A stretch of DNA of 45,569 nucleotides from Candidatus Omnitrophota bacterium (GTDB taxonomy: Bacteria; Omnitrophota; Gorgyraeia; Duberdicusellales; 4484-171). The position numbers and the translations under genes were made by a program. The stretch spans positions 1 to 45,569 of the forward strand of contig JBAZGN010000006.1 in assembly GCA_041652815.1 (NCBI GenBank). Direction: 5' to 3'. This document shows positions 343 through 15,181 of this stretch, one piece after another. Position 1 is the first letter of the stretch, and the number at the start of each line of letters is the position of its first letter. A model generated the notes under the pieces. That model searched no databases. It saw nothing but the letters and a program-made list of their open reading frames with translations, and was not told where the DNA came from.

Positions 343-954
343 TTGGAGAAACAAGTCTTAGAAAATCATCAAAGGTATTTAGAGCGTAAAGCCTTATATA
401 AAAGTTTTGGCTGCGATATCGATAAAGAAAGAGAATTTATTGTCGCAAAAGCCCAGCCTCTCTTTGGAGATATTTTAGAGGCCGGAACCGGCAAAGGGCA
501 TTTTGCGCTTAGCCTTGCCAAGCAAGGCTATCGTTTTACTACTTTCGATATTTCCGAAGAAGAACAAAAATTTGCTAAACTTATCTTAAGATATTTTGGT
601 TTAGATAGCCTGGTTGATTTCCGGATTGAAAACGGCGAACATTTAAGTTTTAAAGATGCAACTTTTGACATGGTTTTTTCCGTCAACACACTCCATCATC
701 TTACAAATCCTTATAAAGTTATGGATGAGTTTATCCGTGTGCTTTCTTTTGAAGGCAGAATTGTTTTAAGCGATTTTACTCTGGAGGGTTTTAAGCTGAT
801 GGATACAATACACAAAAGCGAAGGAAATACCCATCAAGTAAGCAAAACTACCTTAGCGGACATAGAGAAGCATTTAATTACCAAAGGCTTTAAGATAGAA
901 AAACATAAAAGCCAATTTCAGGAAGTTTTAATCGCTTATCATCTATTAATATGA
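343..954 (+). CDS. Class I SAM-dependent methyltransferase
   Basis: ILEAGTGKG motif I, FDIS motif II, FDMVFSVNTLHH; TTG start after AAGGAG; paralog at 34709. Confidence 0.85.
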   Translation: MEKQVLENHQRYLERKALYKSFGCDIDKEREFIVAKAQPLFGDILEAGTGKGHFALSLAKQGYRFTTFDISEEEQKFAKLILRYFGLDSLVDFRIENGEHLSFKDATFDMVFSVNTLHHLTNPYKVMDEFIRVLSFEGRIVLSDFTLEGFKLMDTIHKSEGNTHQVSKTTLADIEKHLITKGFKIEKHKSQFQEVLIAYHLLI

Positions 955-1817
955 TTATTTCAGTTGCAAGTGGAAAAGGCGGAACCGGTAAGACCACAGT
1001 TGCGGTGAATTTAGCGTTATCGTTAGATAATGTGCAATTACTAGATTGTGACGTAGAAGAGCCGAATGCCCATTTATTTTTAAAACCGGAAATAGAAGAA
1101 AGAAAGCAGGCTTTTATTCCTGTTCCAAAGGTTAATGAAGAGAAATGTGATTATTGCGGTAAATGTGCCAAGGTATGCGCTTATAATGCTATCGCGGTTT
1201 TACCTAAAACAGAAAATAAAAAAGGTTCAGTTTTGATTTTTTCTCATCTTTGCCATGGTTGCGGCGCTTGTAGCCTATTGTGTCCGCAAGAAGCTATCAA
1301 TGAAGTGAATAAGGAAATTGGAGTAATAGAGTTTGGGCATGCCGCTAATATCGAATTTATTCATGGGAAACTTAACATTGGTGAAATAATGTCACCGCCG
1401 TTAATCCGTCAGGTCAGACATTATAGCAGTCCCAGCAAAACAGTAATTATTGACGCTCCCCCTGGAACATCCTGTCCGGTTATTGCATCGATTAAAGGAA
1501 GTGATTTCTGTATTTTGGTAACTGAGCCCACACCTTTTGGTCTTAACGATCTGATTCTAGCTGTTGAAGTCGTGCGAAAGTTAGTCATTCCATTTGGAGT
1601 TATTATTAACCGCTCAGATATAGGAAATGGAGAGGTTGAAGAATATTGTTTAAAGGAAAAAATTCCTGTTCTTGCGCAAATTCCTTTTGATATGAAGATT
1701 GCCGAATCTTATTCTAGAGGCATAAATATTGTCGAAGCGATACCGGGATATAAACAGATATTTAACAAAATATTTCAAAGTGTTAATTGCTTAGCTAAAA
1801 AAGAGGATACTCAATAA
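951..1817 (+). CDS. MinD-superfamily P-loop ATPase with inserted ferredoxin domain (COG1149-type)
   Basis: SGKGGTGKTT deviant Walker A, DCDVEEPN, two CxxCxxCxxxC clusters, IDAPPGTSCP. Confidence 0.9.
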   Translation: MIISVASGKGGTGKTTVAVNLALSLDNVQLLDCDVEEPNAHLFLKPEIEERKQAFIPVPKVNEEKCDYCGKCAKVCAYNAIAVLPKTENKKGSVLIFSHLCHGCGACSLLCPQEAINEVNKEIGVIEFGHAANIEFIHGKLNIGEIMSPPLIRQVRHYSSPSKTVIIDAPPGTSCPVIASIKGSDFCILVTEPTPFGLNDLILAVEVVRKLVIPFGVIINRSDIGNGEVEEYCLKEKIPVLAQIPFDMKIAESYSRGINIVEAIPGYKQIFNKIFQSVNCLAKKEDTQ

Positions 1818-1827
1818 AGGTATTAAA

Positions 1828-2181
1828 ATGATTGTCAAAAAAGCGCGACAGTACTTCTTAGGAGAAAATGGCCCACGTTTAAATTGTGCCCAGGCAGTTA
1901 TTGCCGCATGCAGGGAGCTATTTCAATTACCCGAAGAAGCCATTAACGCTCATACCGGTGCAGGTGGGGGTAAAGCTCCGAATGGATATTGCGGCAGCCT
2001 GTATGCTGCATTGTATATTCTTGAGGAGACAAGAAAAGATAAACTTGAAGAGTGCAAAAATTTCTTTACTACCCACGCAAGTGCGCTTACATGCAAAGAA
2101 ATACGTTCTAAAAGAAAGATTCCCTGTGTAAGCTGCGTAGAAAAAGCAACTGAATTTCTGGTTGGGGTAAAAAATAAATGA
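1828..2181 (+). CDS. C-GCAxxG-C-C family putative redox-active protein
   Basis: NCAQAV, GGG..GYCGSL, LTCKEI, CVSCV pattern. Confidence 0.75.
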   Translation: MIVKKARQYFLGENGPRLNCAQAVIAACRELFQLPEEAINAHTGAGGGKAPNGYCGSLYAALYILEETRKDKLEECKNFFTTHASALTCKEIRSKRKIPCVSCVEKATEFLVGVKNK

Positions 2182-3038
2182 AACAAATCGTTGTTATTAG
2201 CGGAAAAGGCGGCACCGGCAAAACCATTCTTTCTGCTTCTTTTGCTGCCTTAGCCAGGAATAAAGTTATGGTTGATTGCGACGTAGATGCCGCAGATTTG
2301 CATCTTTTGCTACATCCGAAGATTAAAGAACGTAATGAATTTAAAAGCGGAAAGACAGCAAGAATTGATAGAGCGCTTTGTAAAGAATGCGGCAAGTGCA
2401 TTAAAGCTTGCCGTTTCAACGCTATAAATCAGAATTTTGCGGTTGATTCTATTTCTTGCGAAGGCTGTGGTTTATGTGTTTATATATGTCCGGCAAACGC
2501 CGTAGCTATGGAAGAAAACTTATCCGGCGAGTGGTTTATCTCAGAAAGTAAATATGGCCCCTTTGTGCATGCTAAGTTAGGCATAGCTTCTGAAAATTCA
2601 GGAAAACTGGTCTCAAAAATCAGGCAGGTAGCGAAAGAAATTGCCGACAGAGAAAAAACAGATTATATAATTATAGACGGCCCCCCAGGAATAGGCTGCC
2701 CGGTAATTGCTTCTTTATCCGGGGTTGATTTAGCTGTCATTGTTACTGAGCCGACAGTATCGGGCATACATGATATGACAAGAGTTTTAGAAGTGGCCGC
2801 GCATTTTGATATTAAGACAGGGGTCGTAATTAATAAATACGATTTGAATCTACAAAACTCTAAGTTAATAGAAGAGTTTTGCAAAGTCAAAAACATCAAT
2901 ATTATAGGCCAGATACCCTTTTCTTTAGAGGTTAACCGTTCAATAGTTAAAACTGTACCGGCAGTTGAATTTTGTAGCGGCATTATTCGCGAAAAAATTA
3001 CTGCGATTTGGGAAACAGTAGTAAATAATGTTGGTTAA
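2178..3038 (+). CDS. Second MinD-superfamily P-loop ATPase with ferredoxin domain
   Basis: SGKGGTGKT, DCDVDAADL, CKECGKC..C, CEGCGLC..CP, IDGPPGIGCP; ATGA overlap with the upstream gene. Confidence 0.9.
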   Translation: MKQIVVISGKGGTGKTILSASFAALARNKVMVDCDVDAADLHLLLHPKIKERNEFKSGKTARIDRALCKECGKCIKACRFNAINQNFAVDSISCEGCGLCVYICPANAVAMEENLSGEWFISESKYGPFVHAKLGIASENSGKLVSKIRQVAKEIADREKTDYIIIDGPPGIGCPVIASLSGVDLAVIVTEPTVSGIHDMTRVLEVAAHFDIKTGVVINKYDLNLQNSKLIEEFCKVKNINIIGQIPFSLEVNRSIVKTVPAVEFCSGIIREKITAIWETVVNNVG

Positions 3039-3060
3039 GAATCTACCAAGGAGATAGTTT

Positions 3061-3411
3061 ATGCATGATACGGTATTTGCTAAACAGATACAAGAAGTTG
3101 CGAATAATAAGCTTAAAGAATTAGGAAAAAATACGCGTATTTGCGCCATTAATGTAAAGCTAAGCCCTTTAAGCCACGTCAAACCCGAAACTTTAAAAGA
3201 AACTTTTGGCGCAACGGTTGAAGGAACTAACTTAGAGGGTATTGTTCTGGATATTAAGACCAGTGAAATTGAAATTAAATGTAATTCGTGTAGAAAGGCA
3301 TTCTTTTCGGCAAAAATGATTTTTTCCTGCCCGGAATGTCAAAGCGCAAATTTATCTGTTAAGGAAACCCCCGAATGTTTTGTTGAGTCAATTGAGGTGC
3401 AAAATGGGTAA
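3061..3411 (+). CDS. hypA: HypA/HybF-family nickel metallochaperone
   Basis: N-terminal MHD (MHE-like), CNSC and CPEC zinc sites, C-terminal VESIEV. Confidence 0.8.
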   Translation: MHDTVFAKQIQEVANNKLKELGKNTRICAINVKLSPLSHVKPETLKETFGATVEGTNLEGIVLDIKTSEIEIKCNSCRKAFFSAKMIFSCPECQSANLSVKETPECFVESIEVQNG

Positions 3412-3808
3412 AGATATGATAGGTATGAGTAACGTAAGCAATTTTAATTTTTCCACCCCGATATCAAGCATTATTAAGAAAGAAAAATTTTTCGGCAGAA
3501 TGAATGATCCCACCGCTTGCGCTGTATTTATCGGCCCTTGCGGTGACGAAATGGAGTTTTATTTGGTTATAGAAGAAGGAATAATTATTGAAGTAAAATG
3601 TTATACAGATGGCTGTAAAGAAACAAGGATGTGCGGGCTTATGGTTGCCTATCTTGCGCATAATAAAACAGTCAATGAGGCCTTGACGATTTCTGCTGGA
3701 GAAGTTATTAAGAAACTTAAAAATCTTTCTTTCGAGCATTTACATTGTTCAATCCTTGCGGTCAGTACTTTATATAGGGCCATAGCGGACTATTTACTAA
3801 AAAAATAA
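3404..3808 (+). CDS. NifU/IscU-like Fe-S cluster scaffold
   Basis: GPCGDEMEFYL, GC..T..C, HCSILAV; ATG 3404 preferred over the track's 3380 start. Confidence 0.85.
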   Translation: MGKDMIGMSNVSNFNFSTPISSIIKKEKFFGRMNDPTACAVFIGPCGDEMEFYLVIEEGIIIEVKCYTDGCKETRMCGLMVAYLAHNKTVNEALTISAGEVIKKLKNLSFEHLHCSILAVSTLYRAIADYLLKK

Positions 3809-3813
3809 TAAAT

Positions 3814-4062
3814 ATGCCTATTTACGAATTTAAATGTAAAGATTGCGGAAAAATCAGTGAATTTCTTATCGGCGTTGGGCAAAATAAACTTGAAAAAAAG
3901 TGTAGCTTTTGTGAAAGCAAAAAATTAGAAAAAATATTTTCTCAAACATTTGTTCCTATCAACAACAGTATTGGCTGTTTGCAGGGTGGTAAAACCTGTT
4001 GCGGAAGAACTGAGCGCTGCGATAAGCCGCCATGCCACGATACAAAAGGATATGGGCGATGA
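3814..4062 (+). CDS. FmdB-family zinc-ribbon protein with Cys-rich tail
   Basis: MPIYEFKCKDCG...CSFCES; tail TCCGRTERCDKPPC. Confidence 0.85.
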   Translation: MPIYEFKCKDCGKISEFLIGVGQNKLEKKCSFCESKKLEKIFSQTFVPINNSIGCLQGGKTCCGRTERCDKPPCHDTKGYGR

Positions 4063-4769
4063 ATATCAAGATTATTGCAGTTGGTTCAAGCAAATGGGAG
4101 CGGTTTATCCGAAAATGGGGGGTATCTTTTCTGATAGGGGAAGATATTTTATTTGATACTTTTGGTGACCCGGACGTCTTTTTAAGAAATATCAAAAAAT
4201 ATAAGATAAGTCTTAATAAAATAAAACATATTATTATTTCTCACAATCATTGGGACCATATTTCCGGGCTGTGGAATATAATTAATAAATGTAAAGATTT
4301 AACAATATATATCTGCTCGAATCTTCAACAAGACACTAAAGAAAGAATTAAGTCGTTTGGGGCTAGAGTTGTTGAGGTAGATAAACCGACAAGAATTACA
4401 GACACCATATGCACCACTAGTGAGTTAAAAGGTGAATACGAAGGCAAGATCATTTATGAGCAGTCGCTGGTGATAAAAACAATGAAAGGTTTAACTGTAA
4501 TTACAGGATGCGCCCATCCGGGAATAACTACAATTATTGATAATGTCCGTAAGCATTTTTATGAGCAAATTTATTTAATAGCCGGAGGTTTCCATTTAAA
4601 GGATGAGTCTCAGCAGGGAATTCAGAGTATCATTTCTGCTTTTAAGATATATCAGGTTGAAAAAGTTATGTCTATGCATTGTACGGGCAGGTTAGCAACT
4701 AAATTATTTAAGAAAGAATATGGAAATAATTTTATTAAAGCCGTAGCAGGTAGTTTTATAGAGGTATAA
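4059..4769 (+). CDS. MBL-fold metallo-hydrolase (COG1237-like)
   Basis: ILFDT, SHNHWDHISG, GCAHPG, GGFH, HCTG; ATGA overlap at 4059. Confidence 0.9.
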   Translation: MNIKIIAVGSSKWERFIRKWGVSFLIGEDILFDTFGDPDVFLRNIKKYKISLNKIKHIIISHNHWDHISGLWNIINKCKDLTIYICSNLQQDTKERIKSFGARVVEVDKPTRITDTICTTSELKGEYEGKIIYEQSLVIKTMKGLTVITGCAHPGITTIIDNVRKHFYEQIYLIAGGFHLKDESQQGIQSIISAFKIYQVEKVMSMHCTGRLATKLFKKEYGNNFIKAVAGSFIEV

Positions 4770-4792
4770 TTTAAGAACAAAAGATATTTAAA

Positions 4793-4960
4793 GTGCCTGT
4801 TTATAATTATTTTTGTAATAATTGTGGAATAAATTTTAATGTAGTCATAAAGAGGCATTCTAAAAAGATAAAGCCTAAATGTAAAAAATGCAGCAGCAAA
4901 AATATCATAAAGACAAAAGGGCCAACGCATTTTCGATACATTTGTCCTAATTTTATTTAA
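4793..4960 (+). CDS. Second FmdB-family zinc-ribbon protein (55 aa, not in ORF track)
   Basis: Manual translation from GTG: MPVYNYFCNNCGINF...KPKCKKCSSKNIIK...; RBS weak. Confidence 0.7.
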   Translation: MPVYNYFCNNCGINFNVVIKRHSKKIKPKCKKCSSKNIIKTKGPTHFRYICPNFI

Positions 4961-4988
4961 TTTAGTAGCAAAAATAAGGAGAGGTTAA

Positions 4989-5348
4989 ATGAAAAAACAA
5001 GTTTTTGGGTATGAACTCATAATGGATTTGCATGGTTGTGATTTAGGGGTAATGACATCCAAGAAAAAACTTCAAGAATATGTGGATAAACTTTGTCCGC
5101 TTATTGATATGGTAAAATACGGTAAGTTATTTTTGCCTTACTTCGGCATACAAAAACCGCACACAAAAGGTTATTCTCTCGCGCAGTTTATCGAAACCAG
5201 CTCTATCACCGCTCATTTTTCTGAACATTGGCGTATTTCTTATATAAATATATTTTCTTGTAAACCATTTAATCCATCTGTGGCTAAAAAGTTTACCAAA
5301 GATTTTTTTAAGGCTGACTATGTTAAAGCGCGGTTTCTCGTAAGGTAA
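4989..5348 (+). CDS. speD: S-adenosylmethionine decarboxylase (pyruvoyl) family proenzyme
   Basis: GYELIMDLHGC, IETSSITAH in place of the usual SESHISIH, YINIFSCKPF; RBS GGAGAGG. Confidence 0.75.
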   Translation: MKKQVFGYELIMDLHGCDLGVMTSKKKLQEYVDKLCPLIDMVKYGKLFLPYFGIQKPHTKGYSLAQFIETSSITAHFSEHWRISYINIFSCKPFNPSVAKKFTKDFFKADYVKARFLVR

Positions 5349-5367
5349 AAAAGAATGCGCCATTTTT

Positions 5368-5817
5368 ATGCTAGCTATTAAAATAAACATCGGTTTAATT
5401 ATTTTTTGCTTCGCAATAGCGGCGATTACGCTGGATTTATTTTTAGGTTGGCAGGGTTTCCTTCCTCAACGGATAGAGCCATTCTTTCTTGCTTGCGCTT
5501 TTTTAGGTGTACCGGCCGGTTTATTAATTTTGCGAGCTAATTATTTGGTTAAGACGATATTAAGTCTTTTCGCCGGATTTTACGCAAAAATCCTGATAGT
5601 GATTATGGCGCATATTTCAGCGGAAAATTTATACTTTTATGTTCAGAGACATCTTGGTCACTATCATCTTCCGGAAAATATAGGAAACGCCGTATTTATC
5701 TCTGCGCTTTTTATGCTTTGGTGTTTTATAATAGCTTCCATTAGTTTTTTAGGCGGTTTGATGATTCGTCTGAAAGAATATATTTTATTCGCGAAGGCAA
5801 ATAGAGATATTTCGTGA
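5368..5817 (+). CDS. Hypothetical membrane protein (about 4 TM)
   Basis: Hydrophobic stretches only; no family recognised. Confidence 0.55.
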   Translation: MLAIKINIGLIIFCFAIAAITLDLFLGWQGFLPQRIEPFFLACAFLGVPAGLLILRANYLVKTILSLFAGFYAKILIVIMAHISAENLYFYVQRHLGHYHLPENIGNAVFISALFMLWCFIIASISFLGGLMIRLKEYILFAKANRDIS

Positions 5818-5908
5818 CTAGGAGTAATGCTCAATCAGAAGGTGTAAACTGGAGTTGGAGTAAATTGTCTCAAGCAAAGCGTCGAGATCTGCTGGAACGT
5901 AGTTCGAT

Positions 5909-6415
5909 ATGTTAATTTCTGTAATGAAAAAAGAAATTAAACTAAAACCTATCGGAATAATCCATACGCCCTATAAAGAGTCGAAGGGGATGCCCATTCA
6001 AGGGCAGTTCGAAAAAGGCGTTAAGGGAAGAATAGAAATATTCCCACGATATAAACAAGGCCTTAAAGATATCAAGGGATTCTCTCATTTAATCTTAATT
6101 TATTATTTTAACCGTTCAAAAGAAGAGAAACTTATTGGCAAGCCATTCCTCGAAGATGTCGAGCATGGTATATTCGCGATAAGAAGTCCTCATCGGCCAA
6201 ATCATCTTGGATTCTCTATCGTTAAACTAAAAGATGTTATAGGCAGCACTATTATTTTTTCAGAAGTAGACATGCTTGATAAAACACTACTATTAGATAT
6301 TAAACCCTACGTAGCTTATTTTGATTATCGTAAACATGTAAAAAACGGATGGCTCAAAAAACATTTCCAGAACAATAGGACACCCCAAAGAGTCAAAATA
6401 GGAAAATTGTCTTAA
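5909..6415 (+). CDS. trmO: TrmO/TsaA-family SAM-binding tRNA methyltransferase-like protein
   Basis: PIGIIHTPY, GIFAIRSPHRPNHLG, LLDIKPY; start may be ATG 5924. Confidence 0.85.
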   Translation: MLISVMKKEIKLKPIGIIHTPYKESKGMPIQGQFEKGVKGRIEIFPRYKQGLKDIKGFSHLILIYYFNRSKEEKLIGKPFLEDVEHGIFAIRSPHRPNHLGFSIVKLKDVIGSTIIFSEVDMLDKTLLLDIKPYVAYFDYRKHVKNGWLKKHFQNNRTPQRVKIGKLS

Positions 6416-6446
6416 GATTAACTCCCAACCGTATTTAAATATTTTA

Positions 6447-6495
6447 TTGACACGTTTTTTAATTATGATATAAATAGAAATGATTTCTATTTATA
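6447..6495 (+). promoter_or_regulatory. sigma70 promoter with perfect Zur-box-like palindrome
   Basis: TTGACA 6447-52, TGnTATAAA -10; TATAAATAGAAAT-G-ATTTCTATTTATA (6469-6495, 13-1-13) resembles the Zur consensus TAAATCGTAATNATTACGATTTA. Confidence 0.8.
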
Positions 6496-6503
6496 ATAAG
6501 TCT

Positions 6504-6920
6504 ATGGAAGAATATTTTCAAACACTCAAAAGGAATAAATTAAAGATAACCCCAAGGCGTAAAGCGGTTATAGGTTTATTTTTGAAGTCTGGCATGCGAA
6601 TGGGGCCTTACGATATTTATAATAAGTTAAAACAAAAACTTCCTAAAATAGGGTTACCGACTGTATATCGGATATTGGATGAACTTAAGAAAGCAGGGAT
6701 TTTAGTGCAATCATTATCTTCTGACCGCCAATTGTGCTATGCGCTATGTGATTCTCCCGGCACGCATCACCATCATTTTGTTTGCCGTAAATGCAAAAAG
6801 GTTGATGAAGTTAATTTTTGTAACTTTAAAGGTATATCGGAATTTATTAAGAAGAATCTTAAAGCTAAAGTCGAGACGCATCATCTGCAAATAGAGGGTG
6901 TATGTTCAAAGTGCAAATGA
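6504..6920 (+). CDS. zur: Fur-family regulator, Zur-like
   Basis: KITPRRKAVI, IGLPTVYRIL, HHHHFVCRKC, GVCSKC; heads an operon with znuACB; ATG 6504 lies downstream of the box. Confidence 0.85.
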   Translation: MEEYFQTLKRNKLKITPRRKAVIGLFLKSGMRMGPYDIYNKLKQKLPKIGLPTVYRILDELKKAGILVQSLSSDRQLCYALCDSPGTHHHHFVCRKCKKVDEVNFCNFKGISEFIKKNLKAKVETHHLQIEGVCSKCK

Positions 6921-7201
6921 GAAAGAAAATATCTTTTTTATTATTAGTTGTTTTTGCTGTTTTTCTTGGGATTGTAATATTCCATCCGTTTGTACACAGC
7001 CTGCATCACGATAGAAACGATGCACATGAGTGCCCGATTTGTATTTGGCTGTACTATGCAGCATTTATATTTTTCTTTGCGGCTATATTTTACGTTATAT
7101 TCCATGTCGTCAGTTTCATTGACATTCTAGCCACCATTCCATTGGTTAAGATTTTGCTTTCCGCTAATATTTCCCGTGCCCCGCCATATGCCCTTTATTA
7201 A
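6917..7201 (+). CDS. DUF2946-like small membrane protein with H/CxxC site and C-terminal RAPP motif
   Basis: TM-HSLHH..HECPIC-TM-...ISRAPP; ATGA overlap with zur. Confidence 0.7.
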   Translation: MRKKISFLLLVVFAVFLGIVIFHPFVHSLHHDRNDAHECPICIWLYYAAFIFFFAAIFYVIFHVVSFIDILATIPLVKILLSANISRAPPYALY

Positions 7202-7262
7202 AATCATTTAAGTATGTATCCAAATAGGGTCTAACTCAGATTGTTAGTAAGTAAAAGGTAAA

Positions 7263-7964
7263 ATGATTTCTTCTATTCAGAATATATTAATTAATGGTTC
7301 ATTTCCGGTAGTTTTAGCGGCGGTGGCTTTTGCTGGTGCTGTTGCGTCACTAAGTTCTTGCACTATCGCCAGGCTTCCTGTTGTTTGGGGTTATGTTGCC
7401 GCGGGAGCAGAGTCTAGAAAAAAAGGAATGCATCTCTCATTGGCTTTTATCTGTGGGCTGATTGTCAGCTATACTATCATCGGGTTTTTGTTTGGGCTTA
7501 TTACTGATCTTGCCGGAAAATTTATCCAAATCAGCAGGTACCTTTATTTAAGCTTAGGAATTTTACTGTTTATCGGAGGGTTTCTTTTTGCAGGATTGAT
7601 ACCTGCTGGTCAAAGCTGGTTTCACAAACGCTGCGATGCAACGATAAAACAAGCTAAAACTATTCACTCAGCATTTGCCCTGGGAATATTTTTCGCTTTT
7701 TTAGAAATGCCTGCCTGCCCCTGTTGCGGAGCAGTACTGATGGTAATAGCGAGTTTAGCGGTAATTAAAGGATCTTTATTTTATTCAGGCCTGATATTTA
7801 TTAGTTTTGCTATCGGCCAAAGCGTCCCAATTTTAGTTATAGGTTTCTCAACCAGCATTTTGAAACACATAATGCCTCAGACCCAGCGGCTTGAAACAGC
7901 TATCGGTTTTATCGCAGGTAATATTTTAATAGTTACCGGAATATTCCTGATAATGCTTGCATAG
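7263..7964 (+). CDS. CcdA/DsbD-type transmembrane thiol-redox protein
   Basis: SLSSC..LP in TM1, CPCCGAVL, about 6 TM. Confidence 0.75.
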   Translation: MISSIQNILINGSFPVVLAAVAFAGAVASLSSCTIARLPVVWGYVAAGAESRKKGMHLSLAFICGLIVSYTIIGFLFGLITDLAGKFIQISRYLYLSLGILLFIGGFLFAGLIPAGQSWFHKRCDATIKQAKTIHSAFALGIFFAFLEMPACPCCGAVLMVIASLAVIKGSLFYSGLIFISFAIGQSVPILVIGFSTSILKHIMPQTQRLETAIGFIAGNILIVTGIFLIMLA

Positions 7965-7979
7965 AAGAATGGAGAAAGA

Positions 7980-8585
7980 ATGTCTTTAGAGAAATGTACG
8001 TGTGGCCAAGAGCACCATCATCACTCTTCTCATAGCTTGTTTAAGCGATGGCTGATAAGTGTGCTTATTGTTGTACCGCTGCTATTTTTATTAAAACCAT
8101 TTATAGCTCAACAAATGCTTGTACGGGCTGCTTCATATTTTTCCTGCGCTTCTTATGATGAAGTCATAAGAGTATGCAGAAAAATCATCTTTATTGATAA
8201 AAATAACGCAAAAGTCTGGTCTTCTCTAGGATATGCTTACAGGGAGAAAGGAGACATTGGTAAAGCTTTAACTGCTTATGAAAAAGTTTATTCGTTGAAT
8301 CCCAATGATAGAGAAGCAAATTTTGATCTCGGTATGATTTATTTCTCAAAGAAAGAGTTTGCTAAAGCTATGCCGTATTTTGAATACATACGGAATAAAG
8401 GCCCTGATAACGGTAATTCTTTGGGCGTAAATTTACTTAATTATCATCGCAGCGCGCTGGCTATGCTCGAAGAATGTTTCAAAGCATTAGGTGATAATTT
8501 CAAAATGAGGCAAATTCAACAAGAAATAAAAAAGTATTATCCAGAGCAAAGCGCAGGAGGCCAGATTAATTTATATGGAAATTAA
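7980..8585 (+). CDS. Membrane-anchored TPR protein with N-terminal CxC/His-rich tail
   Basis: CTCGQEHHHH, TM, WSSLGYAY..ANFDLGMIY TPR repeats. Confidence 0.75.
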   Translation: MSLEKCTCGQEHHHHSSHSLFKRWLISVLIVVPLLFLLKPFIAQQMLVRAASYFSCASYDEVIRVCRKIIFIDKNNAKVWSSLGYAYREKGDIGKALTAYEKVYSLNPNDREANFDLGMIYFSKKEFAKAMPYFEYIRNKGPDNGNSLGVNLLNYHRSALAMLEECFKALGDNFKMRQIQQEIKKYYPEQSAGGQINLYGN

Positions 8586-9147
8586 AGGGAAAAACAGCAT
8601 TATTGTAAAAACTGTAGCCTTACTATACTTGTTGGCAGTATTAATCTGGCAAAGTGCGGTATTGGGTGCAGCAGAAAAAGAACCTTCAAAAGAAAGCCAA
8701 CAGATAGTTACTCTTGATTTTAAGTTATTAGAAAAAACTGAGCGCTATGTTACTGATGATAAGGCAGATTTAAAAGAAATACCGAAAACTATCCTTGCTT
8801 TAAACGGAAAGAAAGTAAAGATAACAGGGTATTTTTTAATACCTTCCCAAGCCTATTACGTGAAAGAGCCAATTTCTAACTTTGGCGTTTCAAAAAATGC
8901 CTATGGATGCCCTTGCTGCAGTTGGGGTAATCAGCCTACAATATTTAATACGGTTATCGTGGACATGAAACAAGGAGATGTTGTTGAACCGCCATTTACG
9001 CCGTTGGTTGAAGTAATCGGAACATTTATTGTAAAAAAAGAACAGTTTGCCGATGGTGCTGGAGAAAAGCATTTGAACACACTTTTTTATATAAAAGATG
9101 CTCAGGCCACAAAAAAGAAACAATCGTTTTTAGAAAGTATTTTTTAA
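8575..9147 (+). CDS. Exported DUF3299-like protein
   Basis: Signal peptide, LNGKKVKITGYFLIP, GCPCC..QPTIFNTVIV; family from recall. Confidence 0.55.
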   Translation: MEIKGKNSIIVKTVALLYLLAVLIWQSAVLGAAEKEPSKESQQIVTLDFKLLEKTERYVTDDKADLKEIPKTILALNGKKVKITGYFLIPSQAYYVKEPISNFGVSKNAYGCPCCSWGNQPTIFNTVIVDMKQGDVVEPPFTPLVEVIGTFIVKKEQFADGAGEKHLNTLFYIKDAQATKKKQSFLESIF

Positions 9148-9161
9148 CCAGGAGGCACAAG

Positions 9162-10172
9162 ATGTTTAAGAAAATTTTTATAGCTTTCTTATTTGTATTT
9201 TTGGTTGGGGTAGCATCTATCATGGCTCAAAGCTTGCAAGACAAGAAGAAAATTGAAGTTATAACAACATTATTCCCAACCTATGATTTCGCAAAACAAA
9301 TTGGCAAAGATAAAGTAAACGTTACGTTGTTACTGCCACCAGGGGTTGAGTCACATACTTTTGAGCCTAAACCAGCGGATATTATTAGGATTAGCAAGGC
9401 AGATGTGTTTATTTACACTGGAAAATATATGGAACCATGGGTAGAGGATGTACTTAAAGGAATTTCTAATAAAAATCTTTTAGTAGTTGACGCAAGTAAA
9501 GATGTTGAACTTATGAGCGAAGAAGACCATAACGAGGAAGCTGAGCATGAAGAAGGAGAGCATCACGAAAGAGAAGATGATAAACATGCCGAACACCATA
9601 AAGAAGAACACGAACATAACCATCACCATGGCGGTAAAGACCCGCATATATGGCTTGATTTAGGCAATGCCCAAATCATGGTGCAAACTATTGCCGATGC
9701 CTTTGCCGATAAAGACCCCGACAACAAAGATTTCTATCTAAAGAATGCGAATGAATATAATACTAAACTCATCCATCTTGACAGGCATTTTAAAGACACG
9801 TTTCTTAGCTGCAGGCATAAGACACTTATCTACGGCGGGCATTTTGCTTTTGGATATTTTGCTAAAAGGTATGGATTAGAATATATCTCTCCGTATGAAG
9901 GTTTTTCTCCGAATGCCGAGCCAACCCCTAAGGCAATAGTTGAATTAATTAAGAAGCTAAAAGCTTCCGGAACAAACTATGTCTATTACGAAGAGTTGCT
10001 TGATCCAAAAATAGCGCGCACTATTGCTTCCGAAACAGGAGCTAAACTTGAATTGCTTCATGGAGCACATAATGTCAGTAAAGATGGGCTAAGCAGGGGA
10101 GTTACTTTCCTTGAGATTATGGAAGATAATTTGAATAAATTAAGAGTCGGCCTTGAGTGTTCGCCCCGTTAG
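9162..10172 (+). CDS. znuA: Zinc ABC transporter substrate-binding protein
   Basis: SHTFEPKP, long His/Glu loop, DPHIWLD, H(F)AFGYF. Confidence 0.92.
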   Translation: MFKKIFIAFLFVFLVGVASIMAQSLQDKKKIEVITTLFPTYDFAKQIGKDKVNVTLLLPPGVESHTFEPKPADIIRISKADVFIYTGKYMEPWVEDVLKGISNKNLLVVDASKDVELMSEEDHNEEAEHEEGEHHEREDDKHAEHHKEEHEHNHHHGGKDPHIWLDLGNAQIMVQTIADAFADKDPDNKDFYLKNANEYNTKLIHLDRHFKDTFLSCRHKTLIYGGHFAFGYFAKRYGLEYISPYEGFSPNAEPTPKAIVELIKKLKASGTNYVYYEELLDPKIARTIASETGAKLELLHGAHNVSKDGLSRGVTFLEIMEDNLNKLRVGLECSPR

Positions 10173-10213
10173 AAATTACGGGGATATTTAATTGTTAGAG
10201 ATTTCTAACGGGG
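10164..10213. repeat. REP-like inverted repeat between znuA and znuC
   Basis: CCCCGTTAGAAAT (10164-76) / ATTTCTAACGGGG (10201-13), perfect 13 bp stem. Confidence 0.7.
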
Positions 10214-10223
10214 TAAATAAAAA

Positions 10224-10958
10224 ATGATAGAAGTAAAAAACTTAAGCGTTAAATACCAAAATATTGAAGCGTTATCTAGCGTAAACTTCAAAGTAGAAGC
10301 CGGTGATTACATTGGCATTGTCGGGCCTAATGGTTCCGGCAAAACTACTTTGGTAAAAGCACTTTTGGGATTGGTTTCTTTTGAAGGTAAGATTGTTTTC
10401 CAGGGTGAGAGCCTTTCAAGGTTTACTTTACATAAACATATAGGATACCTTCCTCAGAAAATGTCATTTCTTGACCAGCGTTTTCCAGCTACCGCTAAGG
10501 AAATAGTTGTTTCCGGGGTGTATTGTTGTAAAAAGTTCCCCAAGCGGTTAACAAAAGAAGATTATGCGGCAGCTGAAGCAATCATGAAGACGCTTAAGAT
10601 TACAAGCCTCAAGGATCGCCCCATAGGCAAACTTTCAGGTGGTCAACAACAAAGAGTTCTGTTAGCTCGTTCTCTCGTGCATTCGCCCAGTGTTCTTATT
10701 CTTGATGAACCGACTATTGCTCTTGATCCGCAGTCGCGAGAAACATTTTATGAGACTGTGCAGAAACTTAATAAAGAAAAACATGTAACTGTACTTTTGG
10801 TTTCGCATGATATAGCTTCAGTCGGAAAATATGCCTCAAAACTGCTTTATTTAGACCGGCAGGTTATTTTTTACGGAACATTTGAAGAATTCTGTAAATC
10901 TCCCCGGATGTCTGAATATTTTGGCGTAAGCCAACACCTTATTTGTCACAGGCATTAA
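10224..10958 (+). CDS. znuC: Zinc ABC transporter ATP-binding protein
   Basis: GPNGSGKTT, LSGGQQQR, LILDEP, C-terminal CHRH. Confidence 0.92.
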   Translation: MIEVKNLSVKYQNIEALSSVNFKVEAGDYIGIVGPNGSGKTTLVKALLGLVSFEGKIVFQGESLSRFTLHKHIGYLPQKMSFLDQRFPATAKEIVVSGVYCCKKFPKRLTKEDYAAAEAIMKTLKITSLKDRPIGKLSGGQQQRVLLARSLVHSPSVLILDEPTIALDPQSRETFYETVQKLNKEKHVTVLLVSHDIASVGKYASKLLYLDRQVIFYGTFEEFCKSPRMSEYFGVSQHLICHRH

Positions 10959-10959
10959 A

Positions 10960-11781
10960 ATGGATATATTTCAACAGATTCAAGAAGCCCTTAAATATGC
11001 ATTTGTGCAACGCGCAATTATCGCGGGTTCGTTTATGGCTCTAGGATGTTCTTGTTTGGGTGTATTCCTTGTTTTACGCAGGTTTTCACTCATCGGCGAC
11101 GGCCTTGCCCATGTAAGCTTTGCTACCGTAGCCATTGGGCTTCTTTTGCGCTCTCAACCAATGGTTATTTCTATTCCTTTAGTCGGGCTCGCTTCACTTC
11201 TTATCCTTAAGCTCAATGAAAAAGCAGCCGTATATGGCGATGCAGCAATAGGGCTTGTTTCATCTTTTGGTATAGCCCTTGGAGTGATTATTGCGAGCAC
11301 CGCCGGTGGTTTTAACGTAGATTTATTCAGTTATCTTTTCGGTAATATCCTTTCAGTGAGTAGCTTTGAAGTCTGGATGACGGTTATAATTTCTTTGATC
11401 GTAGCTTTAATTATCGGGCTTTTTTACCATGATTTATTCGCCATAACCTTTGATGAGGAATACGCTCAAGTGTCAGGAATAAAAGTACGTTTGGTTAATA
11501 GGATTTTAATATTGTTGACTTCGCTGGTTGTAGTATTAGGAATCAAGATCGTAGGAACAATGCTGGTTTCAAGTTTGATTATCCTGCCGGCAATATCTGC
11601 TTTGCAGGTAGTAAAAAGTTTTCGTTCAACCATAGCCCTTGCCGGAACATTTGCGGTTATTTCAGTAATTATAGGTATCTTTGCTTCGTATGTTCTAAAT
11701 CTTCCATCAGGCGCTACCATTGTGATGGTGAATTTTATATTTTTCGTCGGCTCTTTTTTATATCGTAGAGCCAAAGAATGA
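10960..11781 (+). CDS. znuB: Zinc ABC transporter permease
   Basis: GDGLAHVSF, DLFSYLFGNIL, PSGATIV. Confidence 0.92.
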   Translation: MDIFQQIQEALKYAFVQRAIIAGSFMALGCSCLGVFLVLRRFSLIGDGLAHVSFATVAIGLLLRSQPMVISIPLVGLASLLILKLNEKAAVYGDAAIGLVSSFGIALGVIIASTAGGFNVDLFSYLFGNILSVSSFEVWMTVIISLIVALIIGLFYHDLFAITFDEEYAQVSGIKVRLVNRILILLTSLVVVLGIKIVGTMLVSSLIILPAISALQVVKSFRSTIALAGTFAVISVIIGIFASYVLNLPSGATIVMVNFIFFVGSFLYRRAKE

Positions 11782-11841: not shown

Positions 11842-11888
11842 TTGACAACATATTATTTAGTGTTATCATTAATAAAAAAGTAACACTA
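11842..11888 (+). promoter_or_regulatory. nikR promoter with NikR-type operator
   Basis: TTGACA 11842-47, TGtTATCAT -10; TAGTGTTA-N15-TAACACTA (11858-11888) overlaps the -10. Confidence 0.8.
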
Positions 11889-11934
11889 GAAATTAAGTTC
11901 TTCCAAAATATAATTCTAAAAAAGGAGGAGTTCG

Positions 11935-12333
11935 GTGCAAATAAGACGTTTTGGTGTATCGTTAGAAGATGATCTTTTGAAAAAATTGGATAAACTTGTA
12001 GGGGTACATAAATTTCCTAATCGTTCACAAGCTATAAGATTTTTGATAAGGAAAAATCTTGTTGAAGAAGCTTGTGAGAAAAATAAAGAAGTTTCCGGGG
12101 CAATTATTCTTATCTATGACCATCACAGGAGAGAATTAGTGAATAAGTCATTAGATATACAGCATGACTTTTCGCATAGTATTTTATCTACCCAGCATGT
12201 TCATCTAGACCATAATAATTGTTTGGAAATAATTGCCTTAAAGGGGAAAGCAAAGAATTTAAAGGAGCTTTCAGATAAACTGATAGCCCTAAAAGGCGTT
12301 AAGCACGGAAAACTGGTTATAAGCACGACATAG
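11935..12333 (+). CDS. nikR: Nickel-responsive regulator NikR
   Basis: RRFGVSL RHH strand, [18 protein letters not shown]; GTG start with RBS AGGAGG. Confidence 0.95.
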
Positions 12334-12361
12334 CTTTATGTAGTTTTTGAAAATATAACAA

Positions 12362-12523
12362 ATGGAAAATAAAACGCTTAAATTAGAAGAAAAAGAAAAA
12401 CAACGCATAGCGCATGAAGTTTTAAGGGCGATTGGCAATATAGAATATGGCGAAGTAGTGCTTACTATACATGATTCAAAAGTTGTACAAATTGAGAAAA
12501 GGGAGAAGAGGCGGTTTAAATAA
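12362..12523 (+). CDS. DUF2292 (YezD/OscA-like) small protein, 53 aa (not in ORF track)
   Basis: Manual translation: ...RAIGNIEYGEVVLTIHDSKVVQIEKREKRRFK. Confidence 0.8.
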   Translation: MENKTLKLEEKEKQRIAHEVLRAIGNIEYGEVVLTIHDSKVVQIEKREKRRFK

Positions 12524-12611
12524 GAATTACTACTGCACCTGCAGTGTCAGATATTAAACAGTAATTTTTTCGACTGGACAACCAGAGAAAAAAGTAAAGG
12601 AGGTTGTCCAG

Positions 12612-13958
12612 ATGCGGATAATTACATTTTTGATTGGTATCTGTTTTTTTGCAAATGTTTGTCTTGCTGATGAGTCATCTATACAGGATGAAATAAATCA
12701 GCTCAAATCCCGTATAGAAGCGTTAGAAAAAAAAGCTTCCCAGCAGGACGGTTACATTAAGTCTCAGGAGGGCACAATAAAACTTCAGGCAGACAAAATC
12801 TCTCAATACGAAACAAAACTCTCTCAGCTTGATGAAAAGCTTCATCGTGAAACTGGGCTTCCTGAACAAATCGCAAAGGGTCTTGATATTAGCGCTGGCG
12901 CAACAATGGTCGTCCAAGGAACAAATAATGTTAATAACGCATCAGACGATGCCAACCGGAACATTTCCCGTACTGATGGCTCATATTCTACGGACATTAC
13001 GATAGGCAAGGAATTTGAGCAAATAACCGGTAGAGCCTTTCTGCATCTTGAAAATGGTCAAGGCGCAGGGCTTGAAGACAATCTTACCTTGTATAGTAAT
13101 GTTAACCGTGATGCTGATGACGATGTTAATGTCAGAGTTACTGAAGCCTGGTATGAACAAGGGCTTTTCAACGATAAGGCAGCCATAACCTTTGGAAAGC
13201 TTGATCCTACGGTTTATTTCGATGATAACGCCGTTGCCAATGATGAAACTACGCAGTTTTTAGGCAGAATTTTCCGTAATTCACCGACAATTGAATTTTC
13301 TGATAATACAATGGGCATACGTCTTGCTTATATGCCGAAAGAGTGGGTTGAATTTAACTACGGCGTATTTGATGGGAACAATGACTGGGAAAAAATTACC
13401 GATAACCTTGTAAGTATGGGGCAGGTAACTTTTAAAACAAACTTTTTCAATCTCCCCGGTAACTACCGTATCTTAGGCTGGAGGAATAATGTTTACCATA
13501 CCAAATGGCTTGACGATACGCAAACCAAAGAAAATGCCTATGGTTTTGGTTTAAGTTTTGACCAGAAAGCCAACGATGTCGTGACTCTCTTTACCCGTTA
13601 TGGCTGGCAGAATCCAGAGGTTTATAATCCGGAAATTACCGCAACCGGCGATTTAAACTATTCCCTTGAACAATCCTGGAGCGCAGGCTTTCAGATTGAG
13701 GGAAAACCTTGGGGTAGGGAAAATGATGTAGTGGCTTTTGCTGTTGGCCAAATCTTTCCTTCTGATGATTACAAAGAAGCTACCGGACGTTTGGGGAAAA
13801 CAGAGGGCCATCTTGAGGCTTATTATAAAATATATTGCAACAAGCATCTTTCCGTCAGCCCAGATTTCCAATATATCTGGAATCCTTTTGGAAAAGACAT
13901 AGCCGATGATACAGATGGAGTATTTGTGGGAGGGATGAGGACACAGGTAGATTTCTAA
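12612..13958 (+). CDS. OprB/carbohydrate-porin-like outer membrane beta-barrel with N-terminal coiled coil
   Basis: Signal peptide, coiled coil, VTEAWYEQ, FGKLDP..F..N..ANDETTQF, EAYY, SPDFQYIWNP, terminal F. Confidence 0.8.
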   Translation: MRIITFLIGICFFANVCLADESSIQDEINQLKSRIEALEKKASQQDGYIKSQEGTIKLQADKISQYETKLSQLDEKLHRETGLPEQIAKGLDISAGATMVVQGTNNVNNASDDANRNISRTDGSYSTDITIGKEFEQITGRAFLHLENGQGAGLEDNLTLYSNVNRDADDDVNVRVTEAWYEQGLFNDKAAITFGKLDPTVYFDDNAVANDETTQFLGRIFRNSPTIEFSDNTMGIRLAYMPKEWVEFNYGVFDGNNDWEKITDNLVSMGQVTFKTNFFNLPGNYRILGWRNNVYHTKWLDDTQTKENAYGFGLSFDQKANDVVTLFTRYGWQNPEVYNPEITATGDLNYSLEQSWSAGFQIEGKPWGRENDVVAFAVGQIFPSDDYKEATGRLGKTEGHLEAYYKIYCNKHLSVSPDFQYIWNPFGKDIADDTDGVFVGGMRTQVDF

Positions 13959-13971
13959 GTAGGAGGTTAAT

Positions 13972-14250
13972 ATGTGGTTAGCAACAACTTCTATCGCGGC
14001 GACAGGCGCAACTTTAGCTAAATTTGTTTTACCCAAAAAATATAAATTAGATTTTTTAGCTTTAATGCTTTGGGGAGCAGCAGCAATGATTCTCATCGAC
14101 CATATATTCGGATATGAGGGTGGGGCGTTTTTGGAGAAAACAACAGATGGGATGATTAGAAATAGCGCGTTATTGGGGATTACAATGTTGGTGCCCGTGT
14201 TTATAATATGGGGAATTTCACTTTTAATTTCAAATTTAAAAAGGAGGTAA
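13972..14250 (+). CDS. Small 3-TM membrane protein (paralog of the next gene)
   Basis: LMLWGAAAMILIDHI ... FIIWGI; RBS AGGAGG. Confidence 0.75.
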   Translation: MWLATTSIAATGATLAKFVLPKKYKLDFLALMLWGAAAMILIDHIFGYEGGAFLEKTTDGMIRNSALLGITMLVPVFIIWGISLLISNLKRR

Positions 14251-14253
14251 AAA

Positions 14254-14568
14254 ATGGCTTGTTTTCTTGTCCCAACAGCTGCGGCAATAGTAACAACTGC
14301 CGCAGGAAAAAAAGCTAGCGAGAAATTACACTTCAATTGGTTGAATTCAATGTTGTGGGGCGGAGTGGCAATGTTGGCAATCGAACATATCTCTCACGGC
14401 GAATTTGTTCCTTATCCACCATTTCTAACTGCTGGGCTTCCTGAGGTTTTACCGGAAATGGCAAGGGTTGGTATTCCGATGACTCTGTCTATCTTTCTGA
14501 TATGGGGGATAATGGTAACGGTAGCCGCAGTAACGGGTAAAAGAGTAAAGTATATAGAAACGTTATAG
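14254..14568 (+). CDS. Small 3-TM membrane protein
   Basis: MACFLVP, SMLWGGVAMLAIEHISHGE, FLIWGI; RBS AGGAGG. Confidence 0.75.
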   Translation: MACFLVPTAAAIVTTAAGKKASEKLHFNWLNSMLWGGVAMLAIEHISHGEFVPYPPFLTAGLPEVLPEMARVGIPMTLSIFLIWGIMVTVAAVTGKRVKYIETL

Positions 14569-14589
14569 AAAATTACGTTAGATATAACC

Positions 14590-14620
14590 AAAGCCCACCT
14601 TTTAGGTGGGCTTTGTGTTT
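14590..14620 (+). terminator. Intrinsic terminator after the nikR operon
   Basis: AAAGCCCACCT-TTT-AGGTGGGCTTT followed by a T-rich run. Confidence 0.75.
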
Positions 14621-14728: not shown

Positions 14729-15181
14729 ATGTGGGAAGTTTACAGGAATGTCATCAGATGCTATCCAAAGATTTCTCTATCCGAAGAAAGGCTTTTGATT
14801 TATAAGGCTCAAAAAGGATCAAAGAAGAGCAAGGATAAAATTGTTTTTCATTATATTGGTTTCTTAATCTTTAGAATTCACAAAATAGTATTTCCTGAAC
14901 TGCTTCAGCGATTTGGCGAAGATTTACTTGAAGAAGCCATATTGGTTGTTTATAAAAAAATTGAAAGCTATAATCTTGATTATTGTGATAAGCAAGGTAA
15001 CCCTAAGCCTGTAAAGCTTGTTTCTTATATTTGGAAACGAATCGATGGGTTTATAATTGATTCTTTGAAGAAAGAATTGGTTGAATCAAACTATTACAAC
15101 CAGTACAGTGAATATAGTATCAAAAATACAGATTTATCGCTGATGTCCACGTCAAGAGAGGTAGACAATGCTATCTCTTAA
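14729..15181 (+). CDS. Sigma70 region 1.2/2-like protein lacking region 4
   Basis: LSEERLLIYKAQKG, EDLLEEAIL...KIESYN, KLVSYIWKRI align by eye to sigma regions 1.2/2; only 150 aa. Confidence 0.6.
   Translation: MWEVYRNVIRCYPKISLSEERLLIYKAQKGSKKSKDKIVFHYIGFLIFRIHKIVFPELLQRFGEDLLEEAILVVYKKIESYNLDYCDKQGNPKPVKLVSYIWKRIDGFIIDSLKKELVESNYYNQYSEYSIKNTDLSLMSTSREVDNAIS

Follow-up and report, generated by a model that had tools for sequence, protein, structure and literature searches.

A NikR-associated operon in Candidatus Omnitrophota with a candidate two-subunit nickel importer

The DNA analysed here is a window of 45,569 nt from a Candidatus Omnitrophota bacterium (assembly GCA_041652815.1, contig JBAZGN010000006.1), and its subject is the stretch 11842-14620, in which nikR, a DUF2292 gene, the gene of an OprB-type porin and two small paralogous membrane protein genes, named A and B, follow each other closely on a single strand from one promoter to one terminator. 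The unit is of a known kind, the NikR-regulated nickel acquisition operon, and what is new in it is the inner-membrane component, which comes from a widespread undescribed family. Judged by its sequence, 11842-14620 is probably one operon that is autoregulated by NikR and serves nickel acquisition across both membranes. Coordinates are positions in the window; C1, C4 and C5 are contigs of the host genome, and L001, L004, P0129 and similar labels are homologous loci and proteins compared here. The first-pass annotation had listed the promoter, nikR, the DUF2292 gene, an OprB-like porin, two paralogs with three transmembrane segments and the terminator, all of which were recovered at the positions it gave:

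11842-11869, forward strand: sigma-70-type promoter, with the -35 box TTGACA at 11842-11847, a 16-nt spacer and the TG-extended -10 box TATCAT at 11864-11869
11860-11886, no strand assigned: predicted NikR operator GTGTTAt-N13-GTAACAC (the same as GTGTTA-N15-TAACAC), covering the -10 box and the likely start site
11935-12333, forward strand: nikR, first gene of the operon (132 aa, GTG start), with an RHH domain and the nickel-binding domain NikR_C
12362-12523, forward strand: gene of a small soluble DUF2292/YezD-like protein (53 aa; PF10055, 56.4 bits)
12574-12611, forward strand: RNA hairpin of predicted fold with a perfect 10-bp stem, CTGGACAACC / GGTTGTCCAG
12612-13958, forward strand: gene of an OprB-family outer-membrane porin (448 aa; PF04966, 109.8 bits)
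13972-14250, forward strand: gene of subunit A (92 aa, three predicted helices, N-out/C-in), with conserved W2, M39, D43, H44 and E55
14254-14568, forward strand: gene of subunit B (104 aa, three helices, predicted N-out/C-in), with invariant C3, H45, E50 and E68 and near-invariant E44 and H48
14589-14615, forward strand: intrinsic terminator hairpin closing the operon, with a 12-bp stem of which 7 pairs are G-C

NikR and its operator

The nikR product combines an N-terminal RHH DNA-binding domain with a C-terminal NikR_C tetramerisation and nickel-binding domain, as is the rule for its family, and scored 163 bits against NF003381 (cut-off 105), 109.8 bits against NikR_C PF08753 and 26.5 bits against PF01402. 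Its closest relative in PDB is Pyrococcus horikoshii NikR 2bj1 (E = 7e-35), and the Q-H, H-V-H and N-C columns of that alignment, which we take to hold the nickel ligands of NikR (three His and one Cys), contain the same residues in both proteins. The promoter agrees with the consensus at 11 of 12 positions and has TG ahead of the -10 box; the overlap of the predicted operator with that box gives the geometry of a repressor, and nikR is presumably autoregulated. The same arrangement from TTGACA to operator recurs in L001 and L004.

GTGTTA-N15-TAACAC is present in a single exact copy in the whole 2.0-Mb genome, in which an estimated ~0.1 copies are expected by chance. The first-pass annotation had named it as the deltaproteobacterial NikR motif, and correctly: the consensus in Deltaproteobacteria is GTGTTAC-[N13/14]-GTAACAC (Rodionov et al. 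2004; PMC545781, Table 4), and the box of the window, GTGTTAt-N13-GTAACAC, is identical to a variant listed for Desulfovibrio nik operons (PMC545781). The operator lies at the same position 5' of nikR in 14 Omnitrophota loci, with the arms kept and the spacer diverging.

Sequences resembling the NikR half-sites were also seen elsewhere. A direct repeat, GTAGCAC-N13-GTAGCA(A/T), lies in the gap between nikR and the next gene in L046, L051 and L053 and at C5:50400-50430, and could be a second regulatory site; the window copy of the operon does not have it. Scattered through intergenic regions of the host genome are hairpins of the form GTAACACGT-N6-8-ACGTGTTAC, for example at C1:76615, C1:629663, C1:630595 and C4:195570, which often adjoin a GGCGAGTCCAC...GTGGAC hairpin. 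The arms of these dispersed hairpins are NikR half-sites, but with a heptamer spacing of 11-12 instead of 13, and they look like a REP-like element.

Subunits A and B and their family

A and B are 33% identical to each other (E = 3e-10), and the motif MLWG..(D/E)H..IWG ascribed to the pair in the first pass was confirmed. Scans against Pfam and NCBIfam assigned neither protein to a family, the sole row being SLATT_2 at E = 0.075, and the B-family profile retrieved nothing from the PDB sequences but a chance match to a G protein-coupled receptor (E = 0.39). AlphaFold2 modelled the window B with three helices, at residues 5-18, 27-47 and 62-103 (pLDDT 79.3, pTM 0.66), and a natural B-A fusion with five (pLDDT 75.2, pTM 0.63); in Foldseek searches of PDB the best E-values were 0.26 for the fusion model and 7.5 for the B model, with TM < 0.4. 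Literature searches returned no description of the A/B family. Lys and Arg are placed in loop 1 and in the C-terminal tail of both subunits, and because of the positive-inside rule A and B are predicted to be N-out/C-in and to form a parallel dimer. The window A and B genes share a reading frame; a read-through product A-Q-K-B was dropped as a modelling target, the A C-terminus and the B N-terminus being placed on opposite membrane faces.

Residue conservation was assessed over more than ten phyla, with 78 sequences of B and 68 of A. In B, C3, H45, E50 and E68 were invariant and E44 and H48 reached 97%, with M33, M76, W29, W35 and W84 additionally conserved; in A, W2, M39 and D43 were found in 100% and H44 and E55 in 97% of the sequences, and the window pair has all the invariant positions. 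The resulting family patterns are M-A-C-F...WLN.MLWGG...EH..HGE...PPFLTA...E...G..M...W for B and M-W-L...LWG...DH...G..F.E for A, in paralogs of ~90-115 aa that are adjacent or fused. On the predicted topology every ligand-type residue is placed at the outer end of helix 1 or helix 2 or else in the outer loop, and conserved Cys, His and acidic residues at the predicted outer face agree with the His/acidic lining that had been proposed for the pair. All 80 B genes examined encode (Ala/Gly/Cys)-Cys-Phe immediately after the start codon, M-A-C-F in the window B, and nearly all loci have an A that begins with M-W-L. If the free amino terminus has a part in function, an N-terminus fixed to the residue would be expected. 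Ala2 favours Met removal, which on B would expose a set of amine, amide and thiolate from Ala-Cys like the His-Cys hook of NiSOD, and purely by this analogy we infer that the N-terminus of B might be a metal ligand.

The family is large. B has 2209 close relatives in a set of 5.8 billion proteins, in none of which there is a Pfam domain and for which the names given are all 'hypothetical protein'; the A+B profile gathered 364 clusters at 50% identity among 1.84 billion representatives, and a pattern scan of one genome per species yielded at least 588 loci. Bacterial loci occur in Omnitrophota, Patescibacteria/Saccharibacteria, WOR-3, Zixibacteria, Bacteroidota and Chloroflexota and archaeal loci in Thermoplasmata, Archaeoglobaceae, Altiarchaeia, Iainarchaeia, Hadarchaeota and Halobacteria, while a Lachnospiraceae/Eubacterium branch of the Firmicutes holds 5380 further proteins. 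The A gene adjoins the B gene in nearly every locus, in either order, and natural B-A fusions in some lineages support the heterodimer suggested in the first pass. In the fusion P0129, residues 1-95 correspond to B (49% identity) and 118-177 to A residues 22-80 (52%), with A helix 1 dropped, a geometry consistent with the predicted N-out/C-in topology.

A single-gene sister subfamily (~95 aa), which starts with M-C-Y and carries WWL.L.FYGG...IDH.WNGELF, is represented by L023-L038, from the Omnitrophota genomes G260, G388, G165, G135, G145, G400, G396, G264, G213, G323 and G360; it is probably a homodimeric form of the same putative transporter. Sister genes adjoin nikR and a PF13557 barrel in L029, L034 and L038, a protein of the AIR-synthase family (the family of HypE) in L031, and a HypC-radical-SAM fusion in L024. 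Among the neighbours scanned, those in L023 and L025 are Fer4_22 proteins like the one preceding the hydrogenase genes of L001, and L026 and L027 have similar 341-aa neighbours.

Nickel context across loci and genomes

Eighty loci were studied closely, 19 from Omnitrophota and 61 from other phyla. The unit of nikR, outer-membrane channel, A and B recurs in Omnitrophota amid unrelated flanks; in L001 it stands directly upstream of a Fer4_22/Mbh-type group-4 [NiFe]-hydrogenase operon and in L004 it follows feoAB. By tblastn, nikR was found in the flank of 16 of the 19 Omnitrophota loci, the remaining three being cut by contig ends, and in that of 20 of the 61 others, including Thermoplasmata, in which it is often transcribed divergently, Altiarchaeia and Iainarchaeia. 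When the 108 immediate neighbours of the pair in these 61 loci were scanned with Pfam, NikR_C was the only recurrent family (14 members), the next being an amino-acid permease of one clade (5 members), and no ABC, energy-coupling factor (ECF) or TonB family recurred.

NikR boxes were scanned for in 710 kb of loci with 14 specified bases, both orientations, a spacer of 13-14 and at most 2 mismatches; an operator scan with looser settings (one mismatch per hexamer, spacer 13-17) had given uninformative noise and is superseded by this one. Promoter windows, taken as the 150 bp ahead of nikR or of the first pair gene and amounting to 16.4 kb, held 37 boxes versus 9 in the other 693 kb, a density ratio of 173-fold. 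The Omnitrophota boxes have the convergent form and lie 5' of nikR, and the archaeal boxes are reversed, GTAACAC-N13-GTGTTAC, 10-40 bp ahead of the pair; a reversed NikR box was reported for Desulfotalea by Rodionov et al. (PMC545781). Two reversed boxes there precede an unexplained NikR-regulated two-gene cluster of Desulfotalea psychrophila, 422176-177 (PMC545781, Table 4), which may be a member of the A/B family. Ten loci (L062, L070, L076, L086, L089, L099, L100, L111, L115 and L120) have a box and no nikR in the flank, which places the pair in the NikR regulon even where the regulator gene is elsewhere. The co-occurrence of homologous pairs with nikR and the NikR operator, named in the first pass as a check on the nickel reading, is well beyond chance in bacteria and in archaea.

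The placement of the boxes bears on the explanation that A and B export or sequester nickel as a resistance device, with NikR as activator. H. pylori NikR can activate some promoters, and efflux devices can be small membrane proteins. The geometry is however that of a repressor, with the box over the -10 box and start in bacteria and shortly before the start codon (10-40 bp) in archaea; the pair moreover shares its operon with an influx porin, is negatively associated, in nikR-positive genomes, with the importer NikM, and belongs to a host with no other recognised importer. On this comparison of sequences an efflux role of A and B is unlikely, and the explanation as a whole, with activation by NikR, is scarcely credible.

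Homologues also assign the window to Candidatus Omnitrophota. The host genome (2.0 Mb, 92.5% complete, 7 contigs) has genes for two [NiFe]-hydrogenase large subunits and for two HypA proteins, one of the latter in the window at 3061-3411. A whole-genome scan detected no CbiM/NikM (PF01891), CbiQ/EcfT (PF02361), NiCoT (PF03824) or HupE/UreJ (PF04955). The host accordingly needs nickel and has a nickel sensor, and is without any dedicated nickel importer among those tested. It has a second full copy of the operon (nikR, DUF2292, OprB porin, A and B) at C5:49984-52772, overlooked in the first pass, which adjoins pstSCAB-phoU and has proteins 75-85% identical to those of the window; the two diverged copies in a 2-Mb genome may differ in affinity or metal specificity.

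The phyletic pattern was surveyed in 401 Omnitrophota genomes with tests uncorrected for phylogeny. Among pair-bearing genomes 10 of 12 had nikR versus 108 of the 389 without the pair (odds ratio 13, p = 1.4e-4), and the positive control, NikM/CbiM against nikR, gave an odds ratio of 16.5 (p = 2e-30). Within the nikR-positive genomes the pair was anti-correlated with NikM/CbiM (odds ratio 0.16, p = 0.009), also when distant single-gene relatives were added (odds ratio 0.12, p = 2.7e-4), and 10 of the 27 nikR-positive genomes without NikM had the pair or a single-gene relative. In 31 genomes of other phyla in which the pair has no local NikR link, a [NiFe]-hydrogenase was encoded in 20, including genomes of 0.8-1.3 Mb, several of them titled Saccharibacteria, Patescibacteria and Roizmanbacteria. 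CbiM was found in just 3 of the 31 and was missing from the other 28, and 17 of the genomes without it bear a hydrogenase.

These absences matter for the explanation that A/B is an accessory or substrate-capture module, such as a split S-component or a CbiN/NikL-like helper, which works with an unlinked energising module or permease. A and B together have 6 helices and ~21 kDa, the size of an ECF S-component, their strictly fixed N-terminus is reminiscent of NikM/CbiM, in which the N-terminal amine binds metal, and four Omnitrophota genomes have both the pair and NikM. Against this, the host has neither CbiQ/EcfT nor CbiM, so that a role as ECF S-component is rejected for this genome; no recurrent transporter family stands beside the pair in the 61 loci, and 28 of the 31 further pair genomes are without CbiM. 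We hold an accessory role to be quite unlikely.

The hydrogenase counts likewise enter into the explanation that A/B acts as a nickel chaperone anchored in the membrane or as a factor of hydrogenase maturation, with no part in transport. In several loci the pair or a single-gene relative does stand beside hydrogenase operons, a gene of the AIR-synthase family (HypE-type) or a HypC-fusion gene, but the conserved ligand-type residues are on the predicted periplasmic or extracellular face, the pair of diderms is coupled to outer-membrane channels, and 11 pair genomes have no detectable [NiFe]-hydrogenase; such a function is very unlikely.

Proposed uptake route, known systems and accessory genes

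The favoured reading, which on the evidence above is likely, is a NikR-repressed nickel uptake route across two membranes with a new A/B heterodimeric permease as its inner-membrane part. The nickel repression, transport direction, metal specificity, site geometry and energy coupling that we infer for it would be the following. When cytoplasmic Ni(II) is sufficient, Ni-NikR on the 27-bp palindrome over the -10 box would shut the whole operon, nikR included, and when nickel is scarce the operon would be transcribed. The acidic OprB-type porin would admit hydrated Ni(II) across the outer membrane. In the inner membrane the paralogous A and B, of the same N-out/C-in topology, would make a 6-helix heterodimer that takes Ni(II) at the periplasmic face and moves it inward as a secondary carrier or channel with no ATPase. 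The capture site may consist of the B N-terminus (Met-Ala-Cys), B E44, H45, H48, E50 and E68, and A D43, H44 and E55. The driving force of import could be the membrane potential or sinks in the cytoplasm, HypA among them, and the imported nickel would go to HypA and the two [NiFe]-hydrogenases. Taken as a whole, the interpretation offered in the first pass is supported by the sequence comparisons.

More tentatively, A/B may found a new, ancient and minimal class of metal importers of bacteria and archaea. Such a class would be built as a parallel heterodimer of 3-helix paralogs, with the M-C-Y subfamily as a homodimer and the fusions as a 5-helix chain, and would require no ATPase or binding protein. 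Ni(II) would be captured at the cell surface by a 'hook' of amine, amidate and thiolate from the processed B N-terminal Ala-Cys, with B H45, E50 and E68 and A D43 and H44 completing the site, and the class would be the missing nickel entry route for many hydrogenase-bearing Patescibacteria, DPANN, Thermoplasmata and Omnitrophota without known transporters. All of this in combination is possible, yet doubtful.

Several observations weigh against the favoured uptake route. A carrier of 6 helices and ~21 kDa with no known energy-coupling element would be unusually small, and the AlphaFold models reach medium confidence (pLDDT 75-79). The lack of known importers stated in the first pass holds genome-wide for Nik/Cbi ECF systems, NiCoT and HupE, but one Opp/Nik-family ABC system, encoded elsewhere in the host with no NikR box near it, is possibly a nickel importer, although it scores 203 bits versus the NikA cut-off of 393. 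The box of the second operon copy, GTGTTAT-N13-GTGTTAC, departs from the palindrome in its right half-site. NikM is also present in 4 of the 12 pair-bearing Omnitrophota genomes, so that the complementarity, itself uncorrected for phylogeny, is partial, and in 11 of the 31 unlinked genomes no [NiFe]-hydrogenase was detected. Finally, the linkage of homologs to nickel genes stood for many loci (by nikR, boxes or hydrogenase genes) but failed for about 40% of the 80 (~31), which have neither nikR nor a recognisable box, and for the sampled Lachnospiraceae/Eubacterium loci, which sit amid housekeeping genes with no nickel gene. Patescibacteria, Bacteroidota, WOR-3 and Archaeoglobaceae are among the groups whose loci have no local nickel link.

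The Firmicutes branch without nickel context implies that nickel specificity may not hold family-wide; clades may differ in specificity, and cobalt or other metals are possible. Carried further, this becomes the explanation that A/B handles other divalent metals or a wider range of them (Co, Zn, Fe, Mn), or does something unrelated to metals, and that its linkage to NikR is a lineage-specific recruitment. The loci of Firmicutes, Patescibacteria, Bacteroidota and WOR-3, with no nickel genes or boxes nearby, are in its favour, as are the adjacency of the window copy to Zur-ZnuABC and of L004 to FeoAB, and the retention of two copies that have diverged (75-85% identity) may point to different specificities. 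On the other hand NikR is the sole recurrent neighbour, bacteria and archaea both have the boxes, neighbours of the hydrogenase and hyp type recur, and 20 of the 31 'unlinked' genomes encode a [NiFe]-hydrogenase. For members from Firmicutes and Patescibacteria, Rfam models at gathering thresholds detected no upstream riboswitch or other RNA element, and no B12 riboswitch was seen in the seven loci scanned. This explanation is unlikely on balance.

The known systems closest to the favoured nickel uptake operon are the NikR-controlled nik(MN)QO and nikKMLQO operons of Deltaproteobacteria (PMC545781), which share the operator consensus, its reversed form included, and in which the nickel repressor is likewise found beside and upstream of a nickel uptake system; their NikM-nikR association is reproduced in Omnitrophota. 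Unlike these operons, that of the window has no NikM, NikN, NikQ, NikO or ATPase and has instead two 3-helix proteins without ECF similarity, with nikR as the first gene and an outer-membrane porin included. Identity with a Nik/CbiMNQO ECF importer is rejected: A and B have no Pfam match, the operon has no ATPase, and PF01891 and PF02361 are absent genome-wide.

NiCoT (HoxN/NixA), HupE/UreJ and UreH are ATP-independent inner-membrane nickel importers that are often NikR-regulated or located beside hydrogenase or urease genes, and in the first two groups an acidic-His dipeptide in a transmembrane helix is essential (HX4DH in NiCoT, HPxxGxDH in HupE/UreJ). A and B similarly have (D/E)H where helix 2 ends on the outer side, without the full signature; they differ in having 3+3 helices in two polypeptides versus 6-8 in one and a fixed Met-Ala-Cys N-terminus. 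With no profile match and the full motif missing, their identity with NiCoT (PF03824) or HupE/UreJ (PF04955) is rejected. In NikM2 structures the N-terminal amine and His form a square-planar Ni site, and NiSOD has an N-terminal nickel hook. A and B resemble these proteins in their fixed first residues and in the invariant start codon position of B, but have no similarity to NikM/CbiM or NiSOD in sequence or fold. CbtAB, a predicted cobalt transporter with subunits presumably represented by PF09490 and PF09489 (CbtA/CbtB), is rejected because the Pfam-A scan of A and B gave no family at E <= 0.1, provided that the CbtA and CbtB models are in the library. NikK and NikL consist of a single membrane segment at the N-terminus and a periplasmic domain after it (PMC545781), and in a comparison with that description A and B, integral proteins of 92-104 aa that have three helices and lack a soluble domain, are rejected as NikK/NikL on architecture.

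Surveys of nickel use cover a handful of nickel/cobalt importer families, only three of which are reported in archaea (PMC2667541). A/B could fill part of the gap left by genomes with nickel enzymes and without the tested importers, which include the host and the 17 hydrogenase-bearing genomes without CbiM. The family is frequent in the ultra-small genomes of Patescibacteria and DPANN and in Omnitrophota, and if the nickel reading is true it would improve the metabolic annotation of uncultured anaerobes and offer structural biology a 21-kDa model for how metal is translocated, in which there may be an N-terminal nickel hook. The swappable OprB/PF13557 channel bears on the poorly understood passage of nickel through outer membranes without TonB.

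The porin has a signal peptide (a hydrophobic N-terminal leader), a coiled-coil stalk of ~65 residues and an acidic beta-barrel, with a net charge of -26 in the mature form; the match to OprB covers residues 149-448 and is far above the cut-off of 22.9, and there is a weak match to the NCBIfam 'iron uptake porin' NF033921. It resembles the OprB porins for metal cations in its coiled-coil N-terminal stalk and as a barrel under a metalloregulator upstream of an inner-membrane metal importer, as in Geobacter, in which a Fur-regulated OprB porin is encoded upstream of feoAB (PMC545781). Unlike the Geobacter case, the regulator is NikR and not Fur, and the porin is exchangeable with PF13557 (Phenol_MetA_deg/COG4313) barrels in sister loci, the outer-membrane slot being filled by such a barrel in L004, L029 and L038; archaeal loci have no outer-membrane channel gene. 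The swapping of OprB and PF13557 and their absence from archaea define nikR, A and B as the stable core and the porin as a diderm accessory, and suggest that nickel-admitting outer-membrane channels are exchanged modularly. The porin that was proposed in the first pass to feed the pair is on this comparison an exchangeable addition at the outer membrane. In L042, L043 and L054 the slot is occupied by genes of 323 or 304 aa that are not OprB.

DUF2292 is limited to a subclade of these operons, being found also in L007, L048, L052, L059, L104 and the second operon copy. The RNA hairpin at 12574-12611 (-29.8 kcal/mol, z = -4.1) surrounds the porin gene's Shine-Dalgarno sequence and reaches up to the ATG, and its arms recur in L007, L048 (with one G-U), L052 and the gap between nikR and the porin gene of the second copy. 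The hairpin is confined to operons that also carry DUF2292, and it may set the ratio of regulator to porin.

Just 3' of the terminator an open reading frame (ORF) at 14729-15181 gives weak partial matches to sigma-70 and ECF-sigma (E = 0.005-0.01); it is not kept beside the operon in other loci and lies outside the unit. On its other side the operon ends a metal-handling island at 343-11781 of the window, which consists in order of a methyltransferase, two ParA/CbiA-Fer4 NTPases, a C_GCAxxG protein, HypA (3061-3411), NifU_N, an MBL-fold protein, AdoMetDC, TrmO, a Fur-family regulator (6480-6920), a DsbD-like protein, a TPR protein and ZnuA/C/B (9162-11781). A syntenic gene set precedes the nikR unit in L004.

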